A stretch of DNA of 64,000 bases, taken from positions 1 through 64,000 of the IMG/VR virus record IMGVR_UViG_3300017917_000784; one strand, given 5' to 3'. The stretch's first letter is position 1; the number at the start of each line of letters is the position of its first letter. Positions 24,235-42,156 of this stretch are shown piece after piece. Origin of the DNA: a virus. A model generated the notes under the pieces. That model had not been told where the DNA came from. It saw only the letters and a program-made list of their open reading frames with translations, and made no database searches. A program made the translations under genes and the position numbers.

Positions 24235-24732
24235 ATGTCATCGAGAGATACAACACAAGACGATTTAGATTTAGAAACGTTGATCGATTTATTTGATACA
24301 GCATTAACATCTAATAATCCTGCTATGAAAAAAGCCATTAAGAACTTGCTTCTTGTGGCTACTTTAATTGACAGTGAGCTGTCTCCAGAACAACGTGTAC
24401 GTGGACCATTGCGTCAAGCCTTGGAAGATATGCGTGATCTTAGTCGACGTATGGATCGAATTGAAATGGAACAGCGTAATCAAAAGAACCCTTACACATA
24501 TCCTATGCCAGCCACTCCTTATAGTCCGGCGCCAGCCACTCCTTGGCCTAATCCTAACATTACCACGCCTTGGGTTATTCCCCCTGGCACGACTATAAGT
24601 ACATCAACTAGCGGTTCAAGTTACACTATACCTGATGCATACAGTGTTAACTCTAAAGTCACCGTTAGTACAACTGCATTTGATGATCAATTTCGTGCAG
24701 AAGAACTATTAACTAAATTAGAGAGTAAATGA
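24235..24732 (+). CDS. Hypothetical protein with Pro/Ser/Thr-rich tail
   Basis: AAGGA SD; helical N-terminus, low-complexity C-terminus. Confidence 0.7.
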   Translation: MSSRDTTQDDLDLETLIDLFDTALTSNNPAMKKAIKNLLLVATLIDSELSPEQRVRGPLRQALEDMRDLSRRMDRIEMEQRNQKNPYTYPMPATPYSPAPATPWPNPNITTPWVIPPGTTISTSTSGSSYTIPDAYSVNSKVTVSTTAFDDQFRAEELLTKLESK

Positions 24733-26285
24733 ATAAAAATTTAACCGCCACGCAGAAAGACTATGCAATATTTTTGCCAGCAACGTCTGGCTTTTATGCT
24801 ACATTTATAGGGAAACAGCGGTATGGTAACTATGTGGATCCAGCACGTATTCCTAAGTCTTTCCTTAACGGTGTAGAAAGTTTAAACTACCTAAACCCAG
24901 ATAAGGGTGCATTTTATTATAATTGGTGTTTATATTCAGCAGGGCATGCCAATCTTGACTTAAACAAAGTAGATCACGGTGAGGACATGTTCCGTAATCG
25001 AGATCGAAATACTAGTTGGGTATTAGGCGACAGCGGCGGTTTCCAAATTGGTAAAGGTGTATGGGAGGGTGATTGGAAAAATCCTAACTGTCCTAAAGCA
25101 CAAAAGAAACGCGAACAAGTTCTTAAGTGGATGGATGCACTTATGGACTATGGTATGTGTCTTGATATTCCTGCTTGGGTTGCTCGTAGCCCTGCTGGTC
25201 AAAAAGCCACAGGTATTACTACTTACGCAGAAGCAGTTCAAGGAACTTATATTAACAATGATTGGTTTGTAAACAATCGCAACGGTAATTGTAAATTCCT
25301 TAATGTGTTACAAGGCGAAAATCATGCCGATGCAGATGATTGGTATGATCGTATGAAGAAGTATTGTGATACTAAGATTTATGGTGATCGTGCTTTTAAC
25401 GGCTGGGCTATGGGCGGACAAAATATGTGCGACATACACTTAGTATTAAAAAGATTAGTAGCATTACGATTCGACGGATTACTTGAAAAGGGCCAACACG
25501 ATTGGATGCACTTCTTAGGCACAAGTAAACTAGAATGGGCAGTATTACTCACTGACATTCAACGAGCAGTTCGTAAGTACCATAACCCTAATTTTACAAT
25601 CAGTTTTGACTGTGCAAGTCCGTTCTTAGCCACAGCCAACGGTCAAGTCTATGTTCAAACAGAAACTGAGGATAGAACTAAATGGGTCTACAGAATGTTA
25701 CCTAGTATTGATAACAAAAAATATCATCAGGACACTAGACTATTTCGAGATGCAGTAGTACAAGACGGACATTTTAAAAACTTTGACAACAGCCCAATTA
25801 TCGACGGAGTAGAAATCAAAGATGTTTGTATTTACGGTCCAGGCGATTTGAATAAAATTGGCAAAGAAGGTAAAACAAGTTGGGATAGTTTTAGTTACGC
25901 TATATTAATGGGCCATAATGTTTGGATGCATCTAAACAGTGTGCAAGAAGCCAATCGTCAATATGATGCTGGTCGCTGTCCTAGTATGCTGGTTCAGGAA
26001 CGCTTTGATAGATTATTTTTTAAAGACATCGTTGAAGCAATATTTTCAACCAGTGATAGAGCAACTGCTGACAAGGTAGTAGAAGAATACAGTCGTTTTT
26101 GGATGAGTATTATTGGTACAAGAGGTGCAGTAGGTAAGAAAACAGTAAATGCTAGTACCAAATATTTCGAATTGTTTGACGAAGTGGACAATAATAGTGT
26201 ACAATCTACTGAAGAAGGCCATAGCGAAGAGTTTTCTGAAGAAGAAATTCACAAATTAGACAATTTAGAAGAAAGTGTAAAATGA
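24729..26285 (+). CDS. dpdA: TGT-fold transglycosylase, DpdA-like (7-deazaguanine insertion into DNA)
   Basis: LGDSGGFQ, MCLDIP, NVLQG, HFLG, SFDCASP match the TGT/DpdA pattern; folE, queD-like and queE nearby. Confidence 0.72.
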   Translation: MNKNLTATQKDYAIFLPATSGFYATFIGKQRYGNYVDPARIPKSFLNGVESLNYLNPDKGAFYYNWCLYSAGHANLDLNKVDHGEDMFRNRDRNTSWVLGDSGGFQIGKGVWEGDWKNPNCPKAQKKREQVLKWMDALMDYGMCLDIPAWVARSPAGQKATGITTYAEAVQGTYINNDWFVNNRNGNCKFLNVLQGENHADADDWYDRMKKYCDTKIYGDRAFNGWAMGGQNMCDIHLVLKRLVALRFDGLLEKGQHDWMHFLGTSKLEWAVLLTDIQRAVRKYHNPNFTISFDCASPFLATANGQVYVQTETEDRTKWVYRMLPSIDNKKYHQDTRLFRDAVVQDGHFKNFDNSPIIDGVEIKDVCIYGPGDLNKIGKEGKTSWDSFSYAILMGHNVWMHLNSVQEANRQYDAGRCPSMLVQERFDRLFFKDIVEAIFSTSDRATADKVVEEYSRFWMSIIGTRGAVGKKTVNASTKYFELFDEVDNNSVQSTEEGHSEEFSEEEIHKLDNLEESVK

Positions 26286-27160
26286 CAGCATTAGTTGTTG
26301 GATTGGGCATGGGTAATCTCTATGTTCAAGAATTAAAAAAATTAGGACATACTGTTGATACCGTTGACACAGATAAAAACAAAAATCCAACATTTTTATC
26401 CGCAGATCAGGTAACCGGTCATTACGCTATTGCCGTTATTTGTACTCCAAATTTTACACACGAGCCCATTGCAAGAACTATTGCAGATAAATGCGATATA
26501 GTTTTAATTGAAAAGCCAGGAGTCAAAGATAGTAATTCTTGGAAACAATTAACCGAAGATTATCCCAATACTAGATTTATGATGATTAAAAATAATCAGT
26601 ATAGGGATGAAATTTCACTGTTTAAAAAACAAGCTCTAGAAAGTAACAAAGTTTACGTTCGATGGAATAATGCAAATAGGATACCAAGTCCCGGCAGTTG
26701 GTTTACTACTAAATCAAAAGCATTTGGCGGAGTTAGCAGAGATTTAATACCGCACATGCTCAGTTATTATTGTGCGTTAACAGATTATAAGCAAGGTAAT
26801 AAAATTACTGCGACAGCAAAACAAAACTACGAACTTAAAAATATAGATTCCACCGATTACGGTATTATTGATCCTAACGGAATATATGACGTTGATGATT
26901 TTTGTTTGTTTGAATTTAAAAACGAAAACACCACTTGGATATTGACTGCTAATTGGAGAACTAAATTAGATCATGATGATAGTAGTATTGCATTTGTGTC
27001 TAAAAACGAATTGCCTAATAGATATGAGTTAGGGTTATGTCCTGAAGAAGCATATAATAAAATGATGTCAACTGCAATACAAAACCTAAATAATGACGAG
27101 TTTTGGAAAATACAATTGGATCAAGATCTTTGGATACATCAACAGATAGAAAATTTATGA
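26282..27160 (+). CDS. Gfo/Idh/MocA family oxidoreductase
   Basis: VVGLGMG Rossmann motif, ICTPNFTH, IEKPG, GGVSRDLIPH. Confidence 0.85.
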   Translation: MTALVVGLGMGNLYVQELKKLGHTVDTVDTDKNKNPTFLSADQVTGHYAIAVICTPNFTHEPIARTIADKCDIVLIEKPGVKDSNSWKQLTEDYPNTRFMMIKNNQYRDEISLFKKQALESNKVYVRWNNANRIPSPGSWFTTKSKAFGGVSRDLIPHMLSYYCALTDYKQGNKITATAKQNYELKNIDSTDYGIIDPNGIYDVDDFCLFEFKNENTTWILTANWRTKLDHDDSSIAFVSKNELPNRYELGLCPEEAYNKMMSTAIQNLNNDEFWKIQLDQDLWIHQQIENL

Positions 27161-28326
27161 AACCTCATATAATGTTGAGGAACAGTCTAGCAGGTATTAC
27201 GACTAGTCTGGCCATGGTGCCAGAAGTTGTTGCTTTTGCTTTATTGGCACAAGTTAATCCGTTAGTTGGTCTCTATGCCGCAGTGGTACTCGGATTAGTT
27301 ACTGCATTATTTGGAGGCAGACCAGGACTAATCAGCGGCGGCGCAGGTAGTTTGGCCGTAGTTAGCGTTGCCTTAGTTGTCAGTCACGGTGTGGAATATC
27401 TGTTTGCCTGTATTATACTTATGGGTATTTTTCAATTTTTATTTGGAGTATTTAGGTTAGGCAAACTAATCAAATTAGTAAGTCCTAGTGTAATGACTGG
27501 GTTTGTTAACGGATTGGCATTAGTTATTTTCCTTTCTCAATTTCATCAACTTAAAATCGATGATGTATGGTTACAAGGTTCAGCGTTGTTTAACATGATC
27601 GGCCTTGTTGCTGTTACTGTCTTCGGAGTAATTGTTGCTCCTAAAATAACTCGTCACATTCCAGCCAGCCTTTTTGGTATAGTGTTAGTCACTGCTATAG
27701 TATGGTGGTTTGGTATCGAGACTAGAACTGTTGGAGATATTGCTCAAATTAGTGGTTCCCTTCCTAGTTTTAATATTCCTAGTGTGCCTATGACGTTAGA
27801 GACCCTTTGGATTATTTTGCCTTATAGTTTGATACTTGCTATGATTGGGTTAATTGAGACATTATTAACTGCTAATTTGGTTGACGATTTTGTACATCAA
27901 CATAAACCCAATCATAAAACACACCCAAATAAAGAAAGTATGGCTCAAGGAGCAGGTAATATTTTAACTGGCTTTTTTGGAGGAATGGGCGGCTGTGCTA
28001 TGATTGGTCAAACTGTAATTAATCTAGAGGCTGGTGGATTTCATAGATTAGCAGGAGTTGTCCAAGCACTTTGCATCCTTGCTTACATTGTATTTGCTAG
28101 TTTTTTAATTGAGTCAATACCACTGGCCGCATTGATTGGTGTAATGTTTGTTGTGTGTTATCATACATTTAACTGGAAAAGTTTAAAAGTCTTTACACAG
28201 CCTAAAGAAGATGTTATTATTATTTTTATAGTAACTGTATCAACTGTGATTTTTAATTTGGCATATGCTGTTATAATTGGGGTACTATTAACTACCTTAC
28301 TTAACTATCGAAGAAAAGTTATATGA
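27157..28326 (+). CDS. sulP: SulP/SLC26 anion permease lacking STAS domain
   Basis: PEVVAFA, GGRPGLISG, GFFGGMGGCAMIGQ; ends soon after the last TM. Confidence 0.88.
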   Translation: MKPHIMLRNSLAGITTSLAMVPEVVAFALLAQVNPLVGLYAAVVLGLVTALFGGRPGLISGGAGSLAVVSVALVVSHGVEYLFACIILMGIFQFLFGVFRLGKLIKLVSPSVMTGFVNGLALVIFLSQFHQLKIDDVWLQGSALFNMIGLVAVTVFGVIVAPKITRHIPASLFGIVLVTAIVWWFGIETRTVGDIAQISGSLPSFNIPSVPMTLETLWIILPYSLILAMIGLIETLLTANLVDDFVHQHKPNHKTHPNKESMAQGAGNILTGFFGGMGGCAMIGQTVINLEAGGFHRLAGVVQALCILAYIVFASFLIESIPLAALIGVMFVVCYHTFNWKSLKVFTQPKEDVIIIFIVTVSTVIFNLAYAVIIGVLLTTLLNYRRKVI

Positions 28327-29213
28327 ATGTAAAAGTGTTACAGACATTAGGCGATGGAAAATTTGTAGAAGTTGACTGGAAAAAGCCCGAACCAACTAAT
28401 ACAGAAATTGAAGTCAAAAATATTATGACCGGTATCTGTCGTAGCGATATTGATATGATGACCGGTGATTTTGGCCCGTTACCTATTCATATGCAAGGGC
28501 ACGAGGGGTTAGGTGTAGTAACTAAAGTAGGTAGTGAAATCACAGATGTTAAAGTTGGAGATTTAGTTGCTACACGCGGCGAACCTGCTTATGCTGATTA
28601 TTATAATGTTAAGAAAAAAGAATATGTATCGGTACCCGAAGCTCACCCAAGATATATTATTGAACCTGTGGCCTGCGGTATTAATATTGTAGAGCAACCT
28701 AGAAAAGAAATTGAAAAACGACAAGGCGGAAGGTTATTAATTCTAGGTAGTGGGTTTTTAGCCTGGGTAGCGTACCATGATATTCTTTGGAATAAGTTTA
28801 ATTTTGAAATTGATGTAGTGGGTACTGCTAACAAAGACCTTTGGGGCGATGTTCTTAAATCAGAATATCATGGCAAGTATGACGTTATTATTGATTTGAG
28901 CAGTAAAGACGATGCGTTAACTAAAGATATTTTAAATGTTGGAGCATTAGTTATTTTTGGTAGTCAAAAATCTACTAACAGTGACTTTAGGTATCTACTT
29001 TGGAATGCCTGTACTATGACATTTCCTAGTCCAAGAAATGATGAGTTTTATTATTGGATGAAAAAAGCCGTTTACAGGATTCAAAACGGTGAACTTGATG
29101 TTGACAAGTTCTGGACAAAAGCATATAATAGAAGCACAGAATGGCAACAGGCGTTTCAAGACGGGTTGAATAGGCAATTAGGCTACAGTAGAGGGTATAT
29201 TAAATGGGTTTGA
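28323..29213 (+). CDS. Zn-dependent (MDR) alcohol/polyol dehydrogenase
   Basis: GICRSD, GHEGLG, VGD, EPVAC, LGSG. Confidence 0.85.
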   Translation: MNVKVLQTLGDGKFVEVDWKKPEPTNTEIEVKNIMTGICRSDIDMMTGDFGPLPIHMQGHEGLGVVTKVGSEITDVKVGDLVATRGEPAYADYYNVKKKEYVSVPEAHPRYIIEPVACGINIVEQPRKEIEKRQGGRLLILGSGFLAWVAYHDILWNKFNFEIDVVGTANKDLWGDVLKSEYHGKYDVIIDLSSKDDALTKDILNVGALVIFGSQKSTNSDFRYLLWNACTMTFPSPRNDEFYYWMKKAVYRIQNGELDVDKFWTKAYNRSTEWQQAFQDGLNRQLGYSRGYIKWV

Positions 29214-29728
29214 ATACCGAAGAACGACAAGGGGTAGTGTATTTTACAGGATACGAAGTTGAACATACTATATGCCATGGTATGTTTACATTGTTTGTAG
29301 TAGGAACACCTCCATTAAAAGAAATTATAGAACAGGCCGAAAAACACAAAGTTAAACACGTTTACTTTGGTACTAGTCAAAGTTTTAATCCTAAAAGTAT
29401 TAGCCATGAAGAATATAAAGCATGGGATGAAGTCATCGTTGGATGTTTGAAAAAAGATTACTGGGTTACATTGGATTTTGGAGTTGAACATATCGAAGGT
29501 GTGCTCGAAAGTTGCTATTGCGAATATCCTCGGTTTGTTCCAATGATTAGTGTAAAACTTCCATACATTAACCAACTTAATTATAATGCTACACTTAAAT
29601 TAGATGATCGTACGTGGGGTGCTACTAATCCTGGAGTATGGACTCATCACCTGCCAAGTTTGCTAAGTAAAGATAAATTTACCTACTGGGATCAATATAC
29701 TCAAGACACGGAAATAAAATGCAAATGA
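29204..29728 (+). CDS. Hypothetical protein in the deazaguanine cluster
   Basis: Coupled ORF between the dehydrogenase and queD-like gene. Confidence 0.75.
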   Translation: MGLNTEERQGVVYFTGYEVEHTICHGMFTLFVVGTPPLKEIIEQAEKHKVKHVYFGTSQSFNPKSISHEEYKAWDEVIVGCLKKDYWVTLDFGVEHIEGVLESCYCEYPRFVPMISVKLPYINQLNYNATLKLDDRTWGATNPGVWTHHLPSLLSKDKFTYWDQYTQDTEIKCK

Positions 29729-30120
29729 AAATTAAACACGACGTTAGACCCAACAAAATGATCTGGGTTACCTTTCGCAAAGAAGGTATTCATAAATATC
29801 CAGCCGCATTAACAGACCCCAATTTAGCAACAGGAGACGAGTATGATGTTTCGTTCCTTGGTTATCCTCACCGTCATATCTTCCATTTCAGGGTGTGGAT
29901 CTCTGTGCAACACAATGACAGGGACATCGAGTTCATCCAATTCAAACGATGGCTCGAGTCGCTGTATAATGGTCAAGGTGCCGTTCTAAGCCTTGACTAC
30001 AAGAGTTGCGAAATGATGTCAGATGATTTATATGACATCATTAGCAAAAAGTATCCGGACCGTGAGGTTTGGATTGAGGTCTCCGAAGATGGAGAAAATG
30101 GTTCATTCATCAAATATTAA
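29719..30120 (+). CDS. queD: QueD/6-pyruvoyl-tetrahydropterin synthase-like (T-fold)
   Basis: EGIH, HRHIFH, RDIEF, SCEM, VSEDGENG pattern of phage QueD-like proteins. Confidence 0.65.
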   Translation: MQMKIKHDVRPNKMIWVTFRKEGIHKYPAALTDPNLATGDEYDVSFLGYPHRHIFHFRVWISVQHNDRDIEFIQFKRWLESLYNGQGAVLSLDYKSCEMMSDDLYDIISKKYPDREVWIEVSEDGENGSFIKY

Positions 30121-30139: not shown

Positions 30140-30376
30140 ATGAAACCCGAAGTAGTCAAAATTTTTGACGATCTTGAAGCACTGCATAATTTCTGCAGAA
30201 TCGAACTCCTGCCGTTTGACCCGGCAGATTTGTACAACCGTAGTTCCAAAGTTTGGCGCGATTTCGAATATTCAAAGAAGCCTAAACGTCAGTGGAACAA
30301 TGACAAGCCGCGATACAACAACGACCGGCCACGTCATAATAAAGAGTTTAATAATAAACCACGCTGGGAAAGATGA
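30140..30376 (+). CDS. Hypothetical protein
   Basis: AAGGA SD; N/R/K-rich repetitive tail. Confidence 0.65.
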   Translation: MKPEVVKIFDDLEALHNFCRIELLPFDPADLYNRSSKVWRDFEYSKKPKRQWNNDKPRYNNDRPRHNKEFNNKPRWER

Positions 30377-31488
30377 AAACCATCTACATAGTAGATCTTG
30401 AGGCAGTTGAAACTCGCTACACAGCGCAGTGGAAATCTCATCTGCCTAAACACCTGAGAAAGGAAGGGCACAATGTTCAAGTTATCTCTGGTCCTGAAGA
30501 TATTCCTAGTGCAACCACTCCTGGCGCTTTTCTTAATTTTGGTGGCACTAATATCTACAAGTCTAATCAAGTTGAGCAAATTGGTCGACTATTTTGCTCT
30601 GGACGCATTCACGCTGGCGACCACTTTATTTTTACTGATGCTTGGCATCCGGGCATTATAAATTTAAAATATATGAGTGAGCTACTGAACATTCCAGTAA
30701 TCACTCACGGATTATGGCACGCCGGTAGTTATGATCCTCAAGACTTTTTAGGACGTCTTGTTGGAAATAAACCGTGGGTCAGACATGCTGAGAAATCGTT
30801 TTTTTCGGCATTTGATTATAATTACTTTGCCACTTCTTTTCACATCGATATGTTTCATCATAATTTACTTAACGATGGTCTTATTGAAAATCCTTGGGAA
30901 AACGATGATAAGGTAGATATGATCCAATCCGGAAAATATGTACGCACAGGTTGGCCTATGGAATATATGGAAGATATTCTTACTGCTTATAAAGGCATGA
31001 AGAAGCGTAATCTTATATTGTTTCCACATCGTATTGCTCCAGAAAAACAAGTTGAAATTTTCCGTGACTTAAAAGAACACTTGCCGCAATATGAATTTGT
31101 TGTATGTCAGGATCAACAACTGACTAAAAACGAGTATCATAATTTGCTCGGTGAAGCAAAACTAGTTTTCAGTGCTAACTTACAAGAAACGTTGGGCATA
31201 TCTTGTTATGAAGGTGCGGTCGTAGATGCTATCCCTATGGTTCCTGACAGACTTAGTTATACAGAAATGTATTACGATACTTTCAAGTATCCTAGTAAGT
31301 GGACTGAGAGTTGGGAAAATTATCAAGGATATCGTCCGTATCTCTGTAAAAAGATTATAGAATATATGGACAACTATGATAAGTTCCTTCCTCAGTTGAA
31401 AAAACAGACTAAGGACTTAACAGACAACTTTTTTACTGCTAATGGACTCTATCAACAACTCAAGCATACCCATAGTATCGATAGATGA
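30373..31488 (+). CDS. GT-B glycosyltransferase
   Basis: FPHRIAPEKQ and LQETLGISCYEG (E-x7-E) signature. Confidence 0.8.
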   Translation: MKTIYIVDLEAVETRYTAQWKSHLPKHLRKEGHNVQVISGPEDIPSATTPGAFLNFGGTNIYKSNQVEQIGRLFCSGRIHAGDHFIFTDAWHPGIINLKYMSELLNIPVITHGLWHAGSYDPQDFLGRLVGNKPWVRHAEKSFFSAFDYNYFATSFHIDMFHHNLLNDGLIENPWENDDKVDMIQSGKYVRTGWPMEYMEDILTAYKGMKKRNLILFPHRIAPEKQVEIFRDLKEHLPQYEFVVCQDQQLTKNEYHNLLGEAKLVFSANLQETLGISCYEGAVVDAIPMVPDRLSYTEMYYDTFKYPSKWTESWENYQGYRPYLCKKIIEYMDNYDKFLPQLKKQTKDLTDNFFTANGLYQQLKHTHSIDR

Positions 31489-31819
31489 TATTCTATCTTC
31501 TGATACTATAACGTTGACATCTACTGGAATAGATACAATGTCTAGTGCCAATACTATTACTATTGATCTTAGTAACTATACTGGTAGTCAACCGTCATAC
31601 TACGATTCTACTATAGGAAACATAACATTAGGTTCAGGAGATAGTTTTAATTGGAGTATGATTGAAACTATCCCGTTTGAAAACGGGTTTCCAGAATGGC
31701 AAGATTTTCAAGAAATGTGCAAAGAGTATCCTGGATTAGAAAAAACACTTGAACACTTAAAATCATTTTACAAACTTTGTAAAGACGATTGGGAAACAAA
31801 GAAGAGAGGCGATGCCTAA
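31442..31819 (+). CDS. Hypothetical Ser/Thr-rich protein
   Basis: Low-complexity N-terminus, MCKEYPGLEK C-terminal helix. Confidence 0.65.
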   Translation: MDSINNSSIPIVSIDDILSSDTITLTSTGIDTMSSANTITIDLSNYTGSQPSYYDSTIGNITLGSGDSFNWSMIETIPFENGFPEWQDFQEMCKEYPGLEKTLEHLKSFYKLCKDDWETKKRGDA

Positions 31820-32780
31820 CAGTGATAACGGTACTATCTGTTCAGCATTCTGGCGTCATACTAATTTACGAGGCGACGACAGAGTGTTTCCCTGTTGCCG
31901 CTTTAAAGAACCTGTAGGAAAGTTTGACGGCGATGTTGTTAAAATTCTTAACAGCGAAGAATATCAAGAACTGCGTAGAGCCAGTTTAGCCGGAGAAAAA
32001 ATTTCTGGCTGTGCCAAATGCTATCATGAAGAAACATTAGGTAAAGAAAGTCTACGACAGCAGTTTAATAAGACCTATAATAGAGATAATGTCGAACTAG
32101 AATATTTAGAAATTGGTTTTGACAATATATGTAATCTTACCTGCGATGGGTGTTTTGACGAATTTAGCAACTCCTGGGCTAAGAAAAATAATCCGGATAA
32201 ACCAAAAAGAATCTTAACAACAAAATTACATGAAATTAAATCGTTACCTGATACCATAAGAAAAATATTGTTTTTAGGTGGCGAGCCGTTGATGACTAAC
32301 CGCCATAAAAAATTACTTAAGATGGTTAAGAATAAACATATGGTATCTGTGACCTACAACACCAATGGAACGTTTTTATTAGATTTAGACACTACTGATT
32401 TGTTAGACGAATTTAAAAAAGTTGATTTTATTGTTAGCATAGATGCTTATGGTGTTTTAAATAATCATGTAAGAAACGGAAGTAAGTGGGCAGGAATATT
32501 AGAATTTATAGATCAAATAGAGGATCTAGGATTTGATATATCTGTACACACAGTTATTCATAAAAATAATTGGTTTGGTCTTGCAGACTTACACAAATTT
32601 GTAGATCGTATGAGGTTACCCTGGACTACAAATATATTGACGTATCCCGCTCAGTTAGATATAATCAACCTAACAGATCAAGAAAAAAATAATTTTAAAG
32701 AAATACTCGATTCTACAGAAATCCCTAACAAGGATTATATTTTGGAACATTTATTCCACAGAAAGGCCGATAATGTTTAA
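31812..32780 (+). CDS. Radical SAM protein with N-terminal Cys-rich (Twitch/SPASM-like) domain
   Basis: CNLTCDGC, GGEP, YNTNG; N-terminal C...CC...CxxC. Confidence 0.88.
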   Translation: MPNSDNGTICSAFWRHTNLRGDDRVFPCCRFKEPVGKFDGDVVKILNSEEYQELRRASLAGEKISGCAKCYHEETLGKESLRQQFNKTYNRDNVELEYLEIGFDNICNLTCDGCFDEFSNSWAKKNNPDKPKRILTTKLHEIKSLPDTIRKILFLGGEPLMTNRHKKLLKMVKNKHMVSVTYNTNGTFLLDLDTTDLLDEFKKVDFIVSIDAYGVLNNHVRNGSKWAGILEFIDQIEDLGFDISVHTVIHKNNWFGLADLHKFVDRMRLPWTTNILTYPAQLDIINLTDQEKNNFKEILDSTEIPNKDYILEHLFHRKADNV

Positions 32781-33267: not shown

Positions 33268-33835
33268 AAAATGGCACAAGTACGGTGCCGCACATAACAG
33301 AATTCCAGTTACCTGGACAGATGCTGATCTAAACTTCGATTGGCAGTTAACATATCAAACTGATGAAGTTCCGCCAGGCGACGAGTGGCAAATTTGTTCC
33401 ACCGATTTAAAAAAACAACAAGAAGCACTTTTTTCCGAATGGGGAATTACTAAGGAAGCCACTACGCATTGGATGTCGCTACATCCAGAATTAAATGAAA
33501 ATCTTTCTAAAATTTTACAAAATTTTAAATTAAAAAACTATCGATACAATTTTCTTAAATTAACTGCCGGTAGAATGTTACAGTGGCACATCGATGGCTA
33601 CAGTACTTTTGTAAAATATAACAACATCGAAGCACATCGTTGGAAAGAAATTAAACGTGCTGTAGTCATGTTGTCTGATTGGAATTTTGGCCAAGTCATG
33701 CAAATAGGTAGACAGGTTATTGCAGAATGGGAAGCCGGGGACGTTTATACATGGATCGGCGATACATGGCATGGGGCTGCCAATTTTGGTGTAGACGATT
33801 TAGTTGTTATGCAAATTACCTATTTAGATGAATAA
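33233..33835 (+). CDS. Fe(II)/2OG oxygenase-like (cupin) protein, paralogue A
   Basis: WHID...WHGAANFG (HxD...H). Confidence 0.65.
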   Translation: MKNPLLDTDAYKKWHKYGAAHNRIPVTWTDADLNFDWQLTYQTDEVPPGDEWQICSTDLKKQQEALFSEWGITKEATTHWMSLHPELNENLSKILQNFKLKNYRYNFLKLTAGRMLQWHIDGYSTFVKYNNIEAHRWKEIKRAVVMLSDWNFGQVMQIGRQVIAEWEAGDVYTWIGDTWHGAANFGVDDLVVMQITYLDE

Positions 33836-34772
33836 TATACAAGTAAAATTCGACCATCGAGATAAACCACTGGGCGGTGCGTTTGCTGTTAAGGACCCGG
33901 ACTTTCTACAGGTTTTAAATGAATACCACCCTAGTTGGAATTATGTGTTTAACAGCAACTACCATACCGATGAGTTTTGCGAGCAATATTTAGATTGGAT
34001 TAAAGCATCTAGACATAGTAATTTTAAAGGCTTAGAAGATTTCCCCCATTATGCCTTTTCTGCAGGCACTACAGAATCATTTGATAAATTTTACATGAAA
34101 AATCATACTCGAAGATTTAGATGTTTTCGAGGAGAATATTTGTATCATGAATTAGCATGGCGCAACTGTTGGCCCAATTGGCGTTACATCGAATCCGACG
34201 AAATTAGAGTCAACGATGCTGTAGTTATTAGTCTTCCCTTTGCAGACACTGGCGATAAGCATAAGCAGTATGAACATTTAATGGAGACCTGTACTCGGTT
34301 AGGCGTACCTGTGCTAGTCGACTGTGCATATTTTGGACTTGCTACAGAAGTTGAATTTGATCTCAGTTACCCGTGTATTACTGATGTGACATTTAGTCTT
34401 AGCAAATACTTTCCTATAGCACATGCTAGAGTTGGTATGAGATTAACAAGAGTTAATGATGACGATCCATTGTTTGTTTATCAGTATAGAAGTTATAATA
34501 ATAAACACGGTGCAGTACTAGGTCAGTATATGATGAATAACTTTGATTGTAATTTTTTAATTGACCGCTACAGACAACGTCAAACAGAATTTAGTGAATT
34601 TATAAATGTATGCCCTACACGAACCATATTGTTTGCGTTAGGTAGTGACAAGTGGAAAGATTATAATCGTGGCGGCGAACTTAATAGATTAAGTTTTCAC
34701 AAATACCTGCATTTAGATACAGAAGAATTTAAAACAATAATAAAGGAAAAATATGGCAATTTGCTCACATAA
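33828..34772 (+). CDS. PLP-dependent aminotransferase-like protein
   Basis: GTTESF, VLVDCAYF, FSLSKYF...RVG fold-type I PLP motifs. Confidence 0.75.
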   Translation: MNNIQVKFDHRDKPLGGAFAVKDPDFLQVLNEYHPSWNYVFNSNYHTDEFCEQYLDWIKASRHSNFKGLEDFPHYAFSAGTTESFDKFYMKNHTRRFRCFRGEYLYHELAWRNCWPNWRYIESDEIRVNDAVVISLPFADTGDKHKQYEHLMETCTRLGVPVLVDCAYFGLATEVEFDLSYPCITDVTFSLSKYFPIAHARVGMRLTRVNDDDPLFVYQYRSYNNKHGAVLGQYMMNNFDCNFLIDRYRQRQTEFSEFINVCPTRTILFALGSDKWKDYNRGGELNRLSFHKYLHLDTEEFKTIIKEKYGNLLT

Positions 34773-35811
34773 CGATTGGGATCCGTTAGAGGAGATAATA
34801 GTAGGTACAGCAGATCACTCAATGTTACCTACTATGAGTAAAGCAGTACAGGCATTTAGTTACGCAGAATACACCCTGGAAGAATTGCAAGTACTACAAG
34901 GACCACACGATCAACGTATTCGTGACGAAGCAAATGAGGACTTAGAAATTCTAGCAGACACACTTAGAGGTTTAGGTGTTAAGGTACATAGACCTAAAAG
35001 CGTCGATCACGGCAAAGAGTTCAGCAGTCCAGATTGGACTACTACTGGCTGGTATACATTCTGTCCACGTGATTTGTTGTTGCCACTAGATAACCTAGTG
35101 TTAGAAGCCGCAAGTCCTGGCCGTTGCCGTCAATATGAAAGTCGTGCTTACTATGATTATCTATATCAGCAAGTAGAAGAGGGCGTAGAATGGATCAGTG
35201 CTCCTAAGCCCATTCTGCTGGACGACTTATATCAAGTAGAAGACCTAAGCAAGCCTACAGTTAAAAATCACGAAATCATTTGGGAAGCACCTAACGTTGT
35301 GCGTCTAGGCAAGGACTTGTTATATCAAGTTTCTAACACTGGAACACTTAAAGGTTACCAGTGGATGAAGAACATTGTCGAAAAGCGTGGTTATAAATTA
35401 CACCTAGCAGAAGGTTTTTACTTCTTTGCACATTTCGATTCTACAGTTATTCCTTTACGTCCAGGTTTGGTTATGTTTAATGGTGCAAGATTGCGTGAAG
35501 ATCATTACCCACAGATTTTCAAAGACTGGGACAAGATTTGGATCACTCCAGATATGATGTATACTGCTCCTACTGAATTACCTGGCGGAATTCCTCCTTG
35601 CAGTCCTTGGATTGGTATGAACATGCTTAGTGTTAATCCTAACCTTGTTATCATCGACAAGGATCAGGATGTCATACGCAGAGTGTTAGACAAGCACGGT
35701 ATTGAAACTATCGGTTTACCACAGCGTCAAGCACGTACAATGAGCGGCGGATTTCATTGCCAAACATTAGACGTTAAACGTAAAGGAACTTTGGAGAGTT
35801 ATTTTGACTAA
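34753..35811 (+). CDS. Amidinotransferase (glycine / inosamine-phosphate amidinotransferase family) #1
   Basis: NDWDPLEEIIVG, CPRD, HFDST, GGFHC catalytic pattern. Confidence 0.9.
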   Translation: MAICSHNDWDPLEEIIVGTADHSMLPTMSKAVQAFSYAEYTLEELQVLQGPHDQRIRDEANEDLEILADTLRGLGVKVHRPKSVDHGKEFSSPDWTTTGWYTFCPRDLLLPLDNLVLEAASPGRCRQYESRAYYDYLYQQVEEGVEWISAPKPILLDDLYQVEDLSKPTVKNHEIIWEAPNVVRLGKDLLYQVSNTGTLKGYQWMKNIVEKRGYKLHLAEGFYFFAHFDSTVIPLRPGLVMFNGARLREDHYPQIFKDWDKIWITPDMMYTAPTELPGGIPPCSPWIGMNMLSVNPNLVIIDKDQDVIRRVLDKHGIETIGLPQRQARTMSGGFHCQTLDVKRKGTLESYFD

Positions 35812-36154: not shown

Positions 36155-36371
36155 ATCAGTTGCGCACACTTGCAAAGAAATTACAGTTAAAGAACATGAA
36201 GGATATCGTGTACGCATGGTGAAACACGAAGTTCTTAATCCGAAAGGGTTGTTTAGCCTTGATATCATTCAAGAAAGTTTAAAAGACGGTAAAGTTACTA
36301 ATAGTCAAACATATAACTTCTTTATGACTAAAGATGAATTGCAAACTCTAGCACACGGTTTAACATCATGA
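36141..36371 (+). CDS. Hypothetical protein
   Basis: AAGGAG SD before ATG 36141. Confidence 0.7.
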   Translation: MELHESVAHTCKEITVKEHEGYRVRMVKHEVLNPKGLFSLDIIQESLKDGKVTNSQTYNFFMTKDELQTLAHGLTS

Positions 36372-36889
36372 AAAAAGTCTACGTTAGTTGGAATGATGTC
36401 CAACGTCAAGTTCAAGAACTAATACGTCAAATGTGGAAGGACGGATGGACTCCTGACTATGTAGTAGGCATTACTAGAGGTGGTCTAACACCTGCTAACT
36501 TAATTAGTCAGTACTTAGGATGTTCTATGGAAACTTTAAAAGTTAGTCTTAGGGATGGATCTGAACAAGAAAGTAATCTTTGGATGGCCGGTGATGCCTT
36601 TGAAGGTAAAAAAATACTAATAGTTGACGATATTAACGATAGCGGTGCTACACTAAGTTGGATTAAAAATGACTGGCCTAGTGGACATTTCCCTAATGAT
36701 GAAAAATGGAATTCCGTCTGGGGAGGAAATGTTCGTGTAGCCTGTTTATATGATAACGAATCCAGTAAAAGCACACTGGACGTAGACTATGCCGCAGAAA
36801 CTATTAATAAATTAGAAGACCCTTGTTGGATTGTATTTCCTTGGGAAGAATGGTGGAGACGTTGGAATCCAGCAGAGGAGCATAGATAG
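36368..36889 (+). CDS. Purine phosphoribosyltransferase (Gpt/Hpt-like)
   Basis: GITRGG, ILIVDDINDSGAT PRPP motif, WIVFPWE. Confidence 0.9.
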   Translation: MKKVYVSWNDVQRQVQELIRQMWKDGWTPDYVVGITRGGLTPANLISQYLGCSMETLKVSLRDGSEQESNLWMAGDAFEGKKILIVDDINDSGATLSWIKNDWPSGHFPNDEKWNSVWGGNVRVACLYDNESSKSTLDVDYAAETINKLEDPCWIVFPWEEWWRRWNPAEEHR

Positions 36890-36890
36890 T

Positions 36891-37268
36891 ATGATTACAG
36901 ATATAGAACGTGCAATGAACACAGGACGTGCTCCTTGGACTGAACTAGAGTATCAAACAGAATACTTTTGGGTGTTTTCAGACAAGTATCCAGTAACAGA
37001 AGGTCATATGCTGTTTGTTCCAGCAATGGAAAATAAAATCTGTATTATGAAATGCTACGAAGCCGCATACGATGTAGGTGAAGATGGTGTGTTGAATCAG
37101 TTTTGGGATGGATTCAATGTAGGTCAAAATATTGGTGTTGCGGCTGGTCAAACTGTAATGTATCCACACATACACTTAATACCTAGACGTACAGGAGATA
37201 TGTCTGACCCCAGGGGCGGGGTTAGACACGTAATACCGGAAAAAGGAAACTATAAGAAAAATGCTTAA
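36891..37268 (+). CDS. HIT family nucleotide hydrolase
   Basis: DKYPVTEGH, AAGQTVMYPHIHLIPR. Confidence 0.9.
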   Translation: MITDIERAMNTGRAPWTELEYQTEYFWVFSDKYPVTEGHMLFVPAMENKICIMKCYEAAYDVGEDGVLNQFWDGFNVGQNIGVAAGQTVMYPHIHLIPRRTGDMSDPRGGVRHVIPEKGNYKKNA

Positions 37269-38394
37269 CGAACTACAAGTCCATTGGGATAATAAAGTTG
37301 TTGATTATGATTTAGAAAAATATAATTGGCCTGCATGGGCACTGAGTGTTATACAAGAAGTTGCTCCTCAAGTAAAAGAACTTGAAACAATGCACGAGGT
37401 TCTAACACCAGCAGAAATTGTTAGGGTGGGTCAGCATGTACAAAATGCTTGCAGTCGCAGAGACTTTATGGAAAGATTCGACGAGTTTGCGGCAGGTATT
37501 GTTCCACAACGTATTAACAATAAGCGTTATATGATTCAACGTCAAGGAACTTTACGTGTTGTTATTCCTAATCAAGCAAAGGTAGGACGTAGACTTGCGT
37601 TTCATCAAGGTATTTTTGTAGGTAATGGCAGAGGTTGCCGTACTATTTGGACTCCATTTACTCGTGCAGAAAAAACCAATACTATGTGGATGTTGGACCT
37701 AGACATCAGCAGAGAAATTACTAAACGTGTGCTCGCTGAAAAATGGAGTTTAGAAAAGTTTGAAGAAGAAAGTTTAAAACACGCATGGCCAGTTACGCTA
37801 AGTCCAGGTCAAAGTCATTTATTTTTCCAAGAGCATATTCATGGTAATGTAAACAACGATGAAGGATATACTCGTGTTAGTTTAGATATGCGTATCCTAA
37901 TCGAAGGCGAAGAGTGGGGACGTAGACTTCCTGGTGGATTTATGCGTTTACCTGGTGACTACGAAGTTACAGAAACTATGGATTATACTGGTAAAAGTTT
38001 TATCACGTATGCTGGGTGGAATAGTAAGTTTAGTAAAGACATTCCGTTACCTATGCAACGTGCAATTATAGAGCCATATTGTCAAAAGAACAAGATTGCT
38101 TATACAAGTTATGAATTTGAAAACGAACATATGGATTGGCAGCCTGGTTTAGAGTATTACATTAAAGAACGTCCGGACGGTATTGTTTTGTGCAGTATGT
38201 ACAGTCTAACTGATGACATTCAACGTCGAAGTGAAATTTTAAATTTGGCTTTAGATTTAGGAGTTGAATTACACTTTGCTAACGAACTTACCAGTCTTAA
38301 AACTAAAAAAGATTTAGAAAAAATTGAAACTTATCTAAATTTTGCAGTTCCTAAAAAGGGACTACAAGTATGGGAAGAAGGTTGGCCGGGTTGA
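37261..38394 (+). CDS. StrG-like Fe(II) oxygenase fused to a small alpha/beta domain (sporadic carbohydrate cluster type)
   Basis: LAFH...IWTPF...HGNVNN.EGYTRVSLDMR; C-terminal IPLPMQR...GIVLCSMYSL...LHFANE. Confidence 0.6.
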   Translation: MLNELQVHWDNKVVDYDLEKYNWPAWALSVIQEVAPQVKELETMHEVLTPAEIVRVGQHVQNACSRRDFMERFDEFAAGIVPQRINNKRYMIQRQGTLRVVIPNQAKVGRRLAFHQGIFVGNGRGCRTIWTPFTRAEKTNTMWMLDLDISREITKRVLAEKWSLEKFEEESLKHAWPVTLSPGQSHLFFQEHIHGNVNNDEGYTRVSLDMRILIEGEEWGRRLPGGFMRLPGDYEVTETMDYTGKSFITYAGWNSKFSKDIPLPMQRAIIEPYCQKNKIAYTSYEFENEHMDWQPGLEYYIKERPDGIVLCSMYSLTDDIQRRSEILNLALDLGVELHFANELTSLKTKKDLEKIETYLNFAVPKKGLQVWEEGWPG

Positions 38395-38897
38395 AAACAC
38401 AAGGGCACTTGACACCTTATTGGACAAAGGAATCTATTAGCCAGATTCCTTTTGTTACACCTCCAAATCCTAATATTGGATTTGATCTTGTTGATGATCA
38501 AGATCAAATAAGATACAACGGATTAATCACTGCTGATAGGGTAACTGAATTACCGGAAGTTTTAAAATCGGATTTATTAGAAAAAGAATTTGATTGGTTA
38601 GAAAATAAAATTTATGCTGTACATAGAATGAACCCCGGAACCCTTTTGCCTATACACAGAGATTTATATAGATATTTTAAAACTAACAATAACATTGATA
38701 ACATAAACGATATCATTAGAGTAATAGTTTTTTTAGATAGTTGGCACAGCGGTCAACTATTAGAAATAAACGATACTATGGTTGTAAATTGGCAAGCGGG
38801 TGACTGGTATATGTGGAGAGGCGGTGATGCACATCTTGCGGCTAATCTGGGTCATCAAAATAGATATACTTTACAGATTACAGGAACTTTAAAGTGA
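38391..38897 (+). CDS. Fe(II)/2OG oxygenase-like protein, paralogue B
   Basis: PIHRD...HLAANLGHQNRYTLQITG. Confidence 0.7.
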   Translation: MKTQGHLTPYWTKESISQIPFVTPPNPNIGFDLVDDQDQIRYNGLITADRVTELPEVLKSDLLEKEFDWLENKIYAVHRMNPGTLLPIHRDLYRYFKTNNNIDNINDIIRVIVFLDSWHSGQLLEINDTMVVNWQAGDWYMWRGGDAHLAANLGHQNRYTLQITGTLK

Positions 38898-39369: not shown

Positions 39370-40116
39370 ATGACAGATAAAAAAGAAACAGCATTAGACG
39401 CACTAGCCGGCGACGGCGGATATCAAGAAGCATATCTAGCAGACGTAATCCGTACAAAAATGAAACGTGACAAAAAGCGTTTCTGGGCAGGTGACAATAT
39501 TTCAGACTATGTCACTGAAGAAATGAAACACAAACTTATCGATGAAGCAACAGAAGCATTTGAATTAGTGCTTGATCGTTTGCTTATTGATAGAGAAACA
39601 GATCCTAACAGTCAAGGAACAGCACGTAGGTTGGCTAAGATGTACTTTAACGAGATAATGAATGGAAGATATGAGCCAAGCCCAGATTGTACAGCGTTTC
39701 CGAACGATTCGGCAGACCGCTATGAGGGTATGCTCGTGGTGCGTAGTGAACTTCGTAGTATGTGTAGCCATCATCATCAACCTGTTGCTGGGGTTGCGTA
39801 TATTGGCATCATTGCGGCAGAAAAACTGATTGGACTCAGTAAGTACACTCGTATTGCACAGTGGTGTGCTAGACGTGGTACTCTACAAGAAGAACTTGCT
39901 AATGACATTGCTCGTGAGATTGCTAAAGCAACCGGAGCAAAAGACGTAGGCGTCTATATTCAAGCCACACACGGTTGTTGTGAAAATCGCGGAATTATGG
40001 CACATAGCAGTTTAACACAGACTACAGTGTTAAAAGGTGCATTTAAAGACGATGCAGGCACAAAGAAAGAGTTCTTTGATAACATTAAACTACAACAGGA
40101 CTTTGCTCCTAGGTAA
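39370..40116 (+). CDS. folE: GTP cyclohydrolase I (type IA)
   Basis: RSMCSHHHQP, GLSKYTR, LQEEL, HGCC..RG. Confidence 0.95.
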   Translation: MTDKKETALDALAGDGGYQEAYLADVIRTKMKRDKKRFWAGDNISDYVTEEMKHKLIDEATEAFELVLDRLLIDRETDPNSQGTARRLAKMYFNEIMNGRYEPSPDCTAFPNDSADRYEGMLVVRSELRSMCSHHHQPVAGVAYIGIIAAEKLIGLSKYTRIAQWCARRGTLQEELANDIAREIAKATGAKDVGVYIQATHGCCENRGIMAHSSLTQTTVLKGAFKDDAGTKKEFFDNIKLQQDFAPR

Positions 40117-40126
40117 GGAAAAACAA

Positions 40127-40321
40127 ATGACACCAAAAGTAGAAAATATGAAAAAAGGTACATGTGGGTGCGGACGTAGCCCTACTGGAGATTGCATCGG
40201 CTGGCACGCCCTATCTGAAGAAGAATATCAAAAGAAAAAATCAGATTGGGAATTAGCCGAATATCGAAAACAGGCTAACGAACTTTGGAACGATAGTTGT
40301 ACTAGTGGAAGGGCAGAATAA
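40127..40321 (+). CDS. Small CDGSH-like iron-sulfur protein
   Basis: CGCGRSPTGDCIGWH resembles CxCx2Sx3PxCDGSH. Confidence 0.55.
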   Translation: MTPKVENMKKGTCGCGRSPTGDCIGWHALSEEEYQKKKSDWELAEYRKQANELWNDSCTSGRAE

Positions 40322-40812: not shown

Positions 40813-41024
40813 ACTCTGTAGACATGGCCAATGATTTAATTAATCGTGCTAAAAATCTAAAAAAGTTTGAAGTAAAGCGTATGCTCGAAAACGGAATCTT
40901 ATTTAACGGTAGTGTACCTTTTGATATTAAAGGTAAAGACGACTGCTATTGGATTTATGCCTATGCTGTTACTCAAGAAGAAGCAGAAGCAAAAGTCGAT
41001 GCGTGGCTAAAGGATCGTGTATGA
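40809..41024 (+). CDS. Hypothetical protein
   Basis: ATGA coupling, GAGG SD. Confidence 0.65.
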   Translation: MNSVDMANDLINRAKNLKKFEVKRMLENGILFNGSVPFDIKGKDDCYWIYAYAVTQEEAEAKVDAWLKDRV

Positions 41025-41299
41025 AGTGGCTTAAAAGAAAACTACGCATTTGGCTTCAAGAAGAAGACACGCTAGAATGTGCATCTATTGGAAAAATTCG
41101 AGTTTCAGAAGATTGTGTTGAAAGCGATCCTGTGTTAAACTTTAAAGTATATAATGCTATAGGTGGAAAGATTGTAGAGTTTAGGCACTATGATCGTCAG
41201 AAAGATCGAAATTTTAATCAAACCTATATCATTACTAATGATCAAGATTTTGGAGAACGAATTGCTAAAATCGCAACTATGGAAGTATTAAAACAATGA
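41021..41299 (+). CDS. Hypothetical protein
   Basis: ATGA coupling at both ends. Confidence 0.65.
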   Translation: MKWLKRKLRIWLQEEDTLECASIGKIRVSEDCVESDPVLNFKVYNAIGGKIVEFRHYDRQKDRNFNQTYIITNDQDFGERIAKIATMEVLKQ

Positions 41300-42156
41300 G
41301 TCAAATTAAACTTGCTGAATTATTTTACAGCATACAGGGCGAAGGACGCTACATGGGCGTCCCGTCTGTGTTTATGCGTACTTTTGGTTGTAACTTTAAA
41401 TGTGCTGGCTTTGGTATGCCTAAAGGTGCAAATACTACAGAAGTAGAACCAATTGCCGCTAATGTGCATCTTTACAAAAGTTACGAGGAATTGCCATTGG
41501 TTAGTACAGGCTGTGACAGTTATGCTAGTTGGCACCCTGCTTTTAAACATCTAAGTCCATTTTATACTATTGATGAAATTATAGATAAAACATTAGCAGT
41601 ATTGCCCAACAAGCAATGGGAAGATGAACACTTGGTCATTACAGGTGGTGAACCTTTACTAGGGTGGCAACGTGAGTACGAAGCATTAATTAGCGATCCT
41701 CGTATGCGTGGTTTAAAAGAAATTACATTTGAAACTAACGGTACTCAAGAACTACATCGTAGTTTTAAAGACTTTTTAATTGCATGGCAACAACCTCCGT
41801 TGGGTATGCCTAAAACTCACGAAGTAACATTTAGTGTTAGTGCTAAACTTAGTTGCAGTGGTGAAAGTCGAGCAGATGCTATTAAGCCAGACGTAGTATG
41901 TTCTTATCAAGAAGTAGGATATACATATCTTAAATTTGTAATTGCTACAGAAGAAGACGCAGAAGAAGCATTAGAAACTTTAGATATCTATCGTGCTGAA
42001 GGATTTACAGGTCCTTGTTATTTGATGCCTGTTGGCGGAGTTGAAAGTGTTTATACGCTAAACAATCGTCGAGTGGCAGAATTTGCAATGAAAAACGGGT
42101 TGCGTTATTCGGATCGCCTACAAGTACCTTTATTTAAAAATGAGTGGGGTACATAA
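41296..42156 (+). CDS. queE: 7-carboxy-7-deazaguanine synthase (QueE-like radical SAM)
   Basis: ELFYSIQGEG, RTFGCNFKC, CDS, ITGGEP, FETNG, SVSAK, RLQ. Confidence 0.85.
   Translation: MSQIKLAELFYSIQGEGRYMGVPSVFMRTFGCNFKCAGFGMPKGANTTEVEPIAANVHLYKSYEELPLVSTGCDSYASWHPAFKHLSPFYTIDEIIDKTLAVLPNKQWEDEHLVITGGEPLLGWQREYEALISDPRMRGLKEITFETNGTQELHRSFKDFLIAWQQPPLGMPKTHEVTFSVSAKLSCSGESRADAIKPDVVCSYQEVGYTYLKFVIATEEDAEEALETLDIYRAEGFTGPCYLMPVGGVESVYTLNNRRVAEFAMKNGLRYSDRLQVPLFKNEWGT

Follow-up and report, generated by a model that had tools for sequence, protein, structure and literature searches.

Deazaguanine modifications protect phage DNA against restriction enzymes and CRISPR, and modification-dependent defences in turn sense them. 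FolE, QueD and QueE together convert GTP to 7-carboxy-7-deazaguanine (CDG). Among the closest described systems is that of Cellulophaga phage phiST, which has DpdL and DpdA3, the latter with the fold of tRNA-guanine transglycosylases (TGT), no QueC, and 2'-deoxy-7-deazaguanosine (dDG) in place of all its G (PMC10516641). In that work, Cui et al. 2023 gave the name DpdL to CGPG_00067, proposed it to be a CDG decarboxylase and defined the signature LxxxHRHxF. Exchange of guanine in DNA for preQ0 or preQ1 was shown experimentally for DpdA2 of Vibrio phages nt-1 and VH7D and for bacterial DpdA (PMC10516641; PMC10164549). A further relevant phage is the Pseudomonas jumbo phage PA5oct (Arenbergviridae), whose DNA resists several restriction enzymes; its authors suggest a modified G (PMC12191111).

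Here we analyzed a stretch of viral DNA of 64,000 nucleotides (hereafter the window), the first 64 kb of the 85,169-bp IMG/VR record IMGVR_UViG_3300017917_000784. A preliminary description, made from the sequence of the window, had noted 7-deazaguanine genes without QueC, interleaved with a glycosyltransferase and sugar-tailoring enzymes, and had proposed a new, CDG-derived base. All open reading frames (ORFs) it listed were indeed present on the + strand (Table 1). Most of its genes and the reported absences stood, whereas one gene was misnamed, two were weakly assigned, two went unmentioned, and the record is only a fragment. Of its interpretation, the QueC-independent module and the membership of the glycosyltransferase were supported; the novelty drawn from the missing QueC and the role of two dehydrogenases as core enzymes were not. 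We are fairly confident that the region encodes a deazaguanine-in-DNA module of the DpdL kind, and consider it probable that the transferase works in this pathway. The statement as a whole, that a PA5oct-like jumbo phage of pond-metagenome origin encodes here a DpdL-type module for deazaguanine modification of DNA in which the glycosyltransferase takes part, is slightly favored by the evidence. That the final DNA base may itself carry a sugar is a tentative proposal.

The gene that the preliminary description had counted as QueD is a DpdL. Its product of 133 aa had no PTPS/QueD match in Pfam (PF01242) or NCBIfam and falls into the unannotated phrog_17812. When searched by tblastn against 50,697 phage records (E <= 1e-3, the threshold for all homologue calls in these records), it was found in 28 of them, with 70% identity in Phosso, 55% in PA5oct gp166 and in gp125 of Acidovorax phage ACP17 (E 8e-35 for the latter) and 34.5% in phiST CGPG_00067 (E 2e-8). 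The window protein reads L-GYP-HRH-I-F at columns where the QueD proteins of phiST, ACP17 and a complete related genome, G001 (364,554 bp, rated 100% complete), read C-x3-H-G-Y. A leucine thus occupies the position of the catalytic cysteine of QueD (CxxxHGH). Judged by its sequence, the protein is a DpdL orthologue and not QueD, of which it is nevertheless a homologue.

FolE and QueE were correctly named. Five NCBIfam models of QueE also matched the latter protein with E-values from 1e-11 to 1e-12, all below their cut-offs. Six-frame Pfam searches for QueC (PF06508), QueF and the ArcS-core domain DUF5591 were empty both in the 85,169-bp record and in the complete relative, in agreement with the absences first reported, and neither gave a match to the QueC model TIGR00364; of 14 control genomes, the same searches detected QueC in all, QueF in 11 and DUF5591 in 4. 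Since CheckV rates the record only ~23% complete, little could have been concluded from the window by itself. FolE, QueE, DpdL, a TGT-fold enzyme and the empty QueC searches together support a QueC-independent deazaguanine module with a base-exchange enzyme. The missing QueC had been taken as a sign of a novel CDG-derived base. It is already explained because the QueD-like gene is DpdL: the published phiST-type route leads to 7-deazaguanine without QueC (PMC10516641). As in phiST, FolE, QueE and DpdL occur here beside a TGT-fold transglycosylase, without QueC and near polymerase genes; the core is thus the dDG arrangement already published by Cui et al. 2023 and no novelty. For the same reason the set of known bases against which novelty had been judged (dPreQ0, dADG and dG+) was incomplete; dDG and dCDG belong on it.

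Two PP-loop ORFs were noticed during these searches. One of 266 aa lies outside the window (record positions 71844-72644, - strand), carries an SGGADS motif, has no Pfam match, and shares 44% identity with an ORF of relative G004. We rejected it as QueC: BLASTP against E. coli QueC gave E 0.052 over 14 residues only, the best PDB sequence match at the SGG motif was CarA (E 1.1) and the best NCBIfam model TilS_N (E 0.0085). It was also rejected as a conserved pathway member, being missing from the complete relative. The other, of 212 aa, at 1054-1692 of relative G002 (46% complete), weakly resembles the C-terminal part of QueC (PF06508 23.3 bits; TIGR00364 24.7 bits, cut-off 150.3); G001 lacks it too. 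From their sequences and distribution, both look like sporadic accessory enzymes and not part of the pathway core.

The proposed base-exchange enzyme is a protein of 518 aa, identified solely by fold prediction and profile-profile comparison. Searches in Pfam, PHROG, NCBIfam and PDB sequences (phmmer) returned nothing, a six-frame search of the 85-kb record with PF01702 gave no match, and neither did a profile of 57 homologues against PDB sequences. Its AlphaFold model was of high quality (pLDDT 90.7, pTM 0.90) apart from a disordered stretch at residues 464-499. The best 50 Foldseek matches listed for the PDB were all tRNA-guanine transglycosylases (E ~2e-7, probability 1.00), and VIA-align superposed the model on Thermotoga TGT 2ash_B with Z 18.1 (root-mean-square deviation (rmsd) 4.4 A over 305 residues), on archaeosine TGT (ArcTGT) with Z 17.7 and on human QTRT1 with Z 17.2. 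Residues invariant among 57 aligned, diverse full-length members were D101, S102, G104, D146, P148, H261, G264 and D294. hhalign related the family to E. coli Tgt with a probability of 92.5% and paired GDSGGFQ with TDSGGFQ, LDIP with FDEC, HFLG with YLMGVG and SFDCASPF with MFDCVMPT (518-aa family first). In TGT and DpdA, active-site aspartates serve as general acid/base, in base recognition and as nucleophile (PMC10164549). Because of their invariance and their alignment to the Tgt motifs DSGGFQ, FDEC and MFDC, we therefore assign D101, D146 and D294 as the probable general acid/base, base-recognition aspartate and nucleophile, respectively.

Structural comparison within viral proteins (BFVD) pointed in the same direction. 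Matches included a 596-aa protein (E 8e-29), which from its length alone we take as the homologue from Vibrio phage 2.275.O, the 'tRNA guanine transglycosylase' of Achromobacter phage Motura (E 4e-11), several phage queuine tRNA-ribosyltransferases and a protein of Vibrio phage nt-1 (E 8e-10). The weak match to phiST M4SLA5 (E 1.4e-3) concerns a protein of 259 aa, the length of CGPG_00065, which is DpdA3 of Cui et al. The relation to DpdA3 is thus marginal (hhalign probability 71%), in contrast to that with ACP17 gp123 (96.5%, E 9e-10). This 424-aa protein groups with the TGT-like proteins of nt-1 and VH7D (E ~1e-38), whereas BLASTP found no match between it and DpdA3. The nt-1/VH7D DpdA2 enzymes and bacterial DpdA share with our protein the TIM-barrel TGT fold and the three invariant aspartates. 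We conclude from the model and these comparisons that the 518-aa protein probably works like DpdA, as a divergent, zinc-less, long form nearest to the nt-1/ACP17 group. The target is likely DNA since the gene always lies just downstream of the DNA polymerase gene, with one or two small genes between, the window has no tRNA genes, and the zinc module of tRNA TGTs has been lost.

The family is very large: clustering at 90% identity gave at least 7,980 clusters and clustering at 50% identity, at E <= 1e-3, gave 1,007; the source names shown were all 'hypothetical protein'. One member lies near QueE in PA5oct. In Vibrio phage 2.275.O (13723-18931), another stands beside QueF, QueC and FolE, in a locus that also holds a YhhQ-type transporter, a 'queuosine biosynthesis protein' and an Ntn aminohydrolase. 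The family thus appears to serve both preQ-type and DpdL-type pathways. A zinc-less DpdA-like family of the PA5oct type is new relative to the literature searched, on which the supplement of Cui et al. may bear.

A short motif is shared by the polymerase and the 518-aa family. The polymerase ends in ...NKLFDFS (23150-23192) and the disordered tail of the DpdA-like protein contains ...FELFDEV... (~26150-26200). The pattern xLF[DE][FEVIDAW] occurred in the last 90 residues of 12 of the 57 family members, whereas 200 shuffles gave 1.8 on average and 8 at most, and only twice in the 22,435 residues of their bodies.

We compared 80 related IMG/VR loci, 31 of which continue downstream for 7 kb or more from the DpdA-like gene and are called long. 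The order DpdA-like gene, 174-aa protein, DpdL, glycosyltransferase was found in all 31 long loci, with FolE further on in 30 of them. Among the phage records, which are not phylogenetically independent so that counts show linkage and not probability, homologues of the transferase were present in 22, of which 17 also held DpdL: Phosso, 11 of the PA5oct group, 2 of ACP17, Xanthomonas BUDD and X1, and Burkholderia BCSR5. Its distance to DpdL was no more than 3 kb in all 17, and the two genes were immediate neighbours in Phosso, PA5oct and ACP17. Homologues of the 174-aa protein were restricted to the PA5oct group and ACP17, where gp122 adjoins DpdA. For this protein Pfam, PHROG and NCBIfam gave no match, nor did Pfam for any of 31 members, the best E-value of a 31-sequence profile against the PDB was 1, and the ESM Atlas offered no usable match. 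In ACP17, a T4-like phage of 156 kb, gp119-gp126 comprise QueD, FolE, gp122, the DpdA-like gp123, gp124, DpdL and QueE, and gp122 and gp124 are 35% and 34% identical to the 174-aa protein and the transferase. In PA5oct, polymerase, structural protein, DpdA-like gp168 (36% identity), transferase gp167 (40%), DpdL gp166, QueE gp162, exonuclease and ATPase correspond to those of the window in their backbone order. This locus lacks the Gfo/alcohol dehydrogenase pair, the permease and the phosphoribosyltransferase described below, and its 174-aa homologue is ~27 kb away. In NC_071039.1, gp166-168 are annotated as hypothetical, and the preprint names only QueE and the PTPS gp230 (PMC12191111).

Because several phage lineages that are not related to one another keep the transferase adjacent to DpdL and DpdA, we infer that it belongs to the modification module, as had been suspected, and that the 174-aa protein is integral to it as well. 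Neither was found in phiST by tblastn. In the literature searched, 'DpdL' occurs in one work only (PMC10516641 and its preprint), where 'glycosyl' has no occurrence, and a fixed link of a GT4-like transferase with DpdL and DpdA is described in none of it.

The 371-aa transferase itself had no direct match in Pfam (PF00534 included), PHROG or PDB sequences. Some JGI records of close relatives call it a 'glycosyltransferase involved in cell wall biosynthesis', PF00534 is present in homologues of ACP17 gp124, its counterpart, and a 53-sequence profile matched glycosyltransferase 8xsg in the PDB over the nucleotide-sugar domain (E 2.8e-6). The structural model (pLDDT 92.1) confirmed the GT-B fold first assigned: it matched BshA (E 8.7e-11), archaeal glycogen synthase, GlgM and PglA with E-values of 1e-9 to 1e-11, superposed on sucrose-phosphate synthase 6kih_A with Z 26.2 (rmsd 3.5 A, 325 residues) and on BshA and MshA with Z 24-25. 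The same sequence is present in the ESM Atlas (pTM 0.89), with one neighbouring cluster in which 29% of the members carry PF00534. The EX7E motif, E272-x7-E280, was found in 53 of 53 sequences, and R220 and K225 were invariant too. Its model marks the protein as a GT4-like GT-B enzyme, apparently competent for catalysis. Tetrahydrobiopterin glucosyltransferases were among its matches (5zes, E 6e-8; 9v0w_B, Z 20.5); neither queuosine mannosyltransferase nor T4 DNA glucosyltransferase was named among the best 50 listed.

In the pathway that we propose, FolE and QueE, together with a QueD encoded off the fragment, would produce CDG, which DpdL would decarboxylate to 7-deazaguanine. After replication, the 518-aa enzyme would replace guanine by the deazaguanine base in the phage DNA, and it may dock on the replisome through its disordered tail. 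The glycosyltransferase would probably move a sugar from a nucleoside diphosphate sugar onto the deazaguanine, before or after insertion, in which case the DNA may finally contain a sugar-bearing 7-deazaguanine instead of plain dDG. Because 7-deazaguanine has no hydroxyl, the sugar would go on carbon or nitrogen. Chemical reasoning suggests a C-glycoside at C7, the electron-rich pyrrole position freed by decarboxylation, or attachment to an exocyclic or ring nitrogen; the optional Gfo-like and alcohol dehydrogenase-like enzymes might tailor the sugar in some strains. Alternatively, the transferase could be a missing helper in dDG synthesis. A purine phosphoribosyltransferase encoded nearby may salvage the released guanine to GMP and hence GTP for FolE.

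Sugar enzymes decorating a modified base have precedents. Phage T4 DNA contains glucosyl-hydroxymethylcytosine, made by GT-B alpha- and beta-glucosyltransferases, and animal tRNA contains mannosyl- and galactosyl-queuosine, which are glycosylated 7-deazaguanine derivatives. In these cases, however, the acceptors carry hydroxyls, on the hydroxymethyl group and the cyclopentenediol, respectively. T4-style glycosylation of hydroxymethyl-pyrimidines was rejected as the principal role of the transferase, given that a ThyA-type hydroxymethylase (PF00303) was absent from the complete relative; queuosine side-chain genes were not seen, no search having been aimed at them. We know of no glycosylated purine in DNA, and a sugar-bearing 7-deazaguanine, if true, would be the first. 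We only tentatively predict such a base, at somewhat unfavorable likelihood, in virion DNA of this abundant freshwater jumbo-phage clade, PA5oct, ACP17, Phosso, BUDD, X1 and BCSR5.

Several observations weigh against this scheme. 7-Deazaguanine has no hydroxyl, so O-glycosylation lacks an obvious acceptor. There is no sugar-nucleotide synthesis gene in the conserved core, and the Gfo-like and alcohol dehydrogenase-like genes are optional and weakly assigned. A homologue of the transferase is missing in 7 of 13 DpdL phage lineages (Cellulophaga, RHph_I1_18, Bakedbeans, Ahp1, BUCT-ZZ01, D479 and MA9V-3), and phiST, which is without it, makes plain dDG (PMC10516641). The decarboxylase activity of DpdL is unproven, and DpdL plus DpdA of phiST or ACP17 gave no dDG in E. 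coli (PMC10516641). As to the base-exchange enzyme, the TGT fold and the three aspartates bear out its first description as DpdA/TGT-like, whereas two expected family features are lacking. Only 2 of the 57 homologues matched Pfam TGT PF01702, with E 0.043, and none contained CxCxxC or any conserved cysteine cluster; PMC10164549 describes a structural zinc site, CXCX2CX22H, as 'conserved in the DpdA family'. The sporadic, divergent PP-loop ORFs may mean that some strains have a QueC-like step. Finally, a search with PF01242 detected no true QueD on the 85-kb record. In the complete relative it is encoded far from the module (PF01242 6e-16; TIGR03367 E 3.5e-8), and in PA5oct the PTPS is gp230 (PMC12191111). 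By analogy with the complete relative, the QueD of the pathway would simply lie off this fragment.

Much of this would be accommodated by a plain phiST-type system, in which DpdL and DpdA insert unmodified dDG while the transferase and the 174-aa protein act elsewhere, in envelope or protein modification, or give non-catalytic help, their linkage being due to the early/replication block. We regard this as a serious possibility, without preferring it. dDG is the sole product measured for a DpdL phage, with 302,000 per 10^6 nucleotides in phiST (PMC10516641), and 7-deazaguanine has no hydroxyl to act as acceptor. The closest solved relatives of the transferase (BshA, sucrose-phosphate synthase, MshA and PglA) use small molecules or sugars, and T4 DNA glucosyltransferases were not among its best 50 matches listed. 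Unrelated functions are harder to reconcile with a transferase that has DpdL and DpdA as its direct neighbours in phages whose genomes are not otherwise related, namely the T4-like ACP17, PA5oct, Phosso, BUDD, X1 and BCSR5, and in every long locus. The failure of ACP17 DpdL and DpdA alone to produce dDG also argues against it, and led Cui et al. to suggest that further enzymes may be needed (PMC10516641).

A participating transferase would be of interest in either form. A working-looking glycosyltransferase fixed in the DpdL module predicts a sugar-decorated deazaguanine or a missing step of dDG synthesis; the latter could explain the dDG absent from the E. coli experiment with the ACP17 proteins. 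Both predictions are directly testable on cultured phages. The base-exchange enzyme, for its part, is zinc-less and invisible to Pfam and belongs to a very large family of environmental proteins annotated as hypothetical, of which PA5oct also has a member.

A nucleotide-level, pre-replicative route seems improbable. In such a route a phosphoribosyltransferase would make a deazaguanine nucleotide that the polymerase incorporates, leaving the TGT-fold enzyme a minor or proofreading role. A phosphoribosyltransferase acts on preQ0 in the toyocamycin pathway, and a xanthine/guanine-type enzyme and a HIT protein are conserved between the glycosyltransferase and FolE in 23 of the 31 long loci. However, tblastn found no homologue of the phosphoribosyltransferase at the module loci of PA5oct or ACP17, no dedicated kinase or reductase set was identified, and the TGT-fold enzyme retains all three catalytic aspartates. 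Least probable of all is a module not aimed at phage DNA, for queuosine-type tRNA modification or for a pterin or deazapurine glycoside that diffuses. In its favor, tRNA enzymes share the fold and pterin glucosyltransferases are among the transferase matches. Against it, BshA and sucrose-phosphate synthase rank far above these glucosyltransferases, with QueE the pathway is committed to deazapurines, the 518-aa enzyme lacks the zinc site of tRNA TGTs and keeps its place behind the polymerase, the window contains no tRNA genes, and PA5oct, with the same genes, has restriction-resistant DNA (PMC12191111).

Table 1. Genes of the proposed module and its neighbours in the window
Feature	Position	Strand	Evidence and occurrence
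Predicted divergent, zinc-less TGT-fold DNA transglycosylase, DpdA-like, 518 aa, disordered acidic tail	24729..26285	+	fold, three aspartates
Gfo/Idh/MocA-like oxidoreductase, optional accessory	26282..27160	+	PF01408, PF22725, E 1e-4 to 6e-4, below cut-offs
SulP-family anion permease, membrane domain only, window-specific insert	27103..28326	+	PF00916 E 6e-50; TIGR00815 E 5e-58
Zn-dependent alcohol dehydrogenase-like, optional, paired with the Gfo-like gene	28323..29213	+	PF08240 E 8.7e-12; phrog_2640 E 2.4e-17
Conserved 174-aa protein	29204..29728	+	72/80 related loci, 31/31 long loci
DpdL, QueD-like, 133 aa, proposed CDG decarboxylase	29719..30120	+	tblastn, motif, lacking PF01242
GT4-like GT-B glycosyltransferase, 371 aa, conserved partner of DpdL and DpdA	30373..31488	+	fold, EX7E, synteny
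Twitch-domain radical SAM enzyme, insert	31812..32780	+	NF033640 E 1e-63; 0/80 loci
Three insert ORFs	33233-33835, 33828-34772, 34753-35811	+	0/80 loci
Purine (xanthine/guanine-type) phosphoribosyltransferase-like, conserved in this group of phages	36368..36889	+	PF00156 E 3.4e-16; 23/31 long loci
HIT-family nucleotide hydrolase or transferase, conserved in this group of phages	36831..37268	+	PF01230 E 3.3e-7; 25/80 loci
'Sporadic carbohydrate cluster' 2OG-Fe(II) oxygenase fused to LIC12192-family domain	37261-38394	+	0/80 loci
Insert ORF	38370-38897	+	0/80 loci
GTP cyclohydrolase I (FolE)	39370..40116	+	PF01227 E 1.1e-38, above cut-off; phrog_2197 E 6e-45
7-Carboxy-7-deazaguanine synthase (QueE, radical SAM)	41296..42156	+	phrog_2076 E 1.4e-50, full length

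The remaining genes of the region are less constant. Both dehydrogenases of the preliminary description exist, but their matches are weak or partial, that of the Zn-dependent one being confined to the N-terminal GroES-like domain. Homologues of the Gfo-like gene occur in 27 of the 80 related loci (12 of the 31 long ones) and of the alcohol dehydrogenase-like gene in 26 of the 80; as a pair between DpdA and the 174-aa gene they occur in 12 of the 31 long loci. Two genes had been overlooked in this interval, the conserved 174-aa protein and the SulP permease, which lies between the two dehydrogenase genes, has no STAS domain and comes nearest to models named sulfate permease, BicA and DauA. Seven window genes, the permease among them, had no tblastn match in any of the 80 loci and are, by this comparison, apparently strain-specific inserts. 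They include, within 33233-35811, a weakly aminotransferase-like ORF and an amidinotransferase/ADI-like ORF (phrog_25854). The 'interleaved tailoring enzymes' are thus mostly strain-specific and do not belong to the pathway core. The phosphoribosyltransferase-like protein also matched NF006613 (xanthine phosphoribosyltransferase) with E 2e-19, below the cut-off.

Past the end of the window, minus-strand genes are densely packed into an island at positions 64001-84000 of the record; they include at least five radical SAM genes, a cupin resembling Asp/Asn hydroxylases and, at 80518-81579, a gene resembling 3-dehydroquinate synthase (DHQS) and EEVS (PF01761 E 5e-37). We considered the tailoring island at 52-85 kb as a source of the sugar donor and rejected it: since the EEVS/DHQS-like gene is missing in all five large relatives searched, the complete one included, the conserved module does not need this island.

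As to the origin of the DNA, the record has no terminal repeats. Its words were recovered at fractions of 0.99 and 0.79 in two runs of one 2018 pond-metagenome study, either of which may be its source. Megablast of the whole region against the phage records gave no match. The size of the complete relative and the PA5oct-type gene order indicate that the source is a jumbo phage of roughly 360 kb. From ~20,000 to 53,000 all genes are on the + strand and tightly overlapping. A family-B polymerase, a 243-aa protein and the 518-aa protein are followed further on by QueE, a structural protein, an exonuclease and an ATPase. PA5oct has the same order with protein identities of 30-55%, and Vibrio phage 2.275.O shares, at the same level of identity, only the first part, from the polymerase to the 518-aa protein.

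The polymerase is a single intact ORF of 890 aa in the window (20520-23192), whereas that of PA5oct (5608-10834) is split into gp173 and gp171 by the Hef-like homing endonuclease gp172. Downstream of QueE, a B12-binding radical SAM enzyme is encoded at 45025-46506 (+), followed by genes at 46588-47682 and 47767-48939. The ATPase downstream of the B12-binding radical SAM gene belongs to phrog_1297 (E 8.5e-102) and is 53% identical to its PA5oct homologue, and the protein after it belongs to phrog_1314 (E 4e-111).

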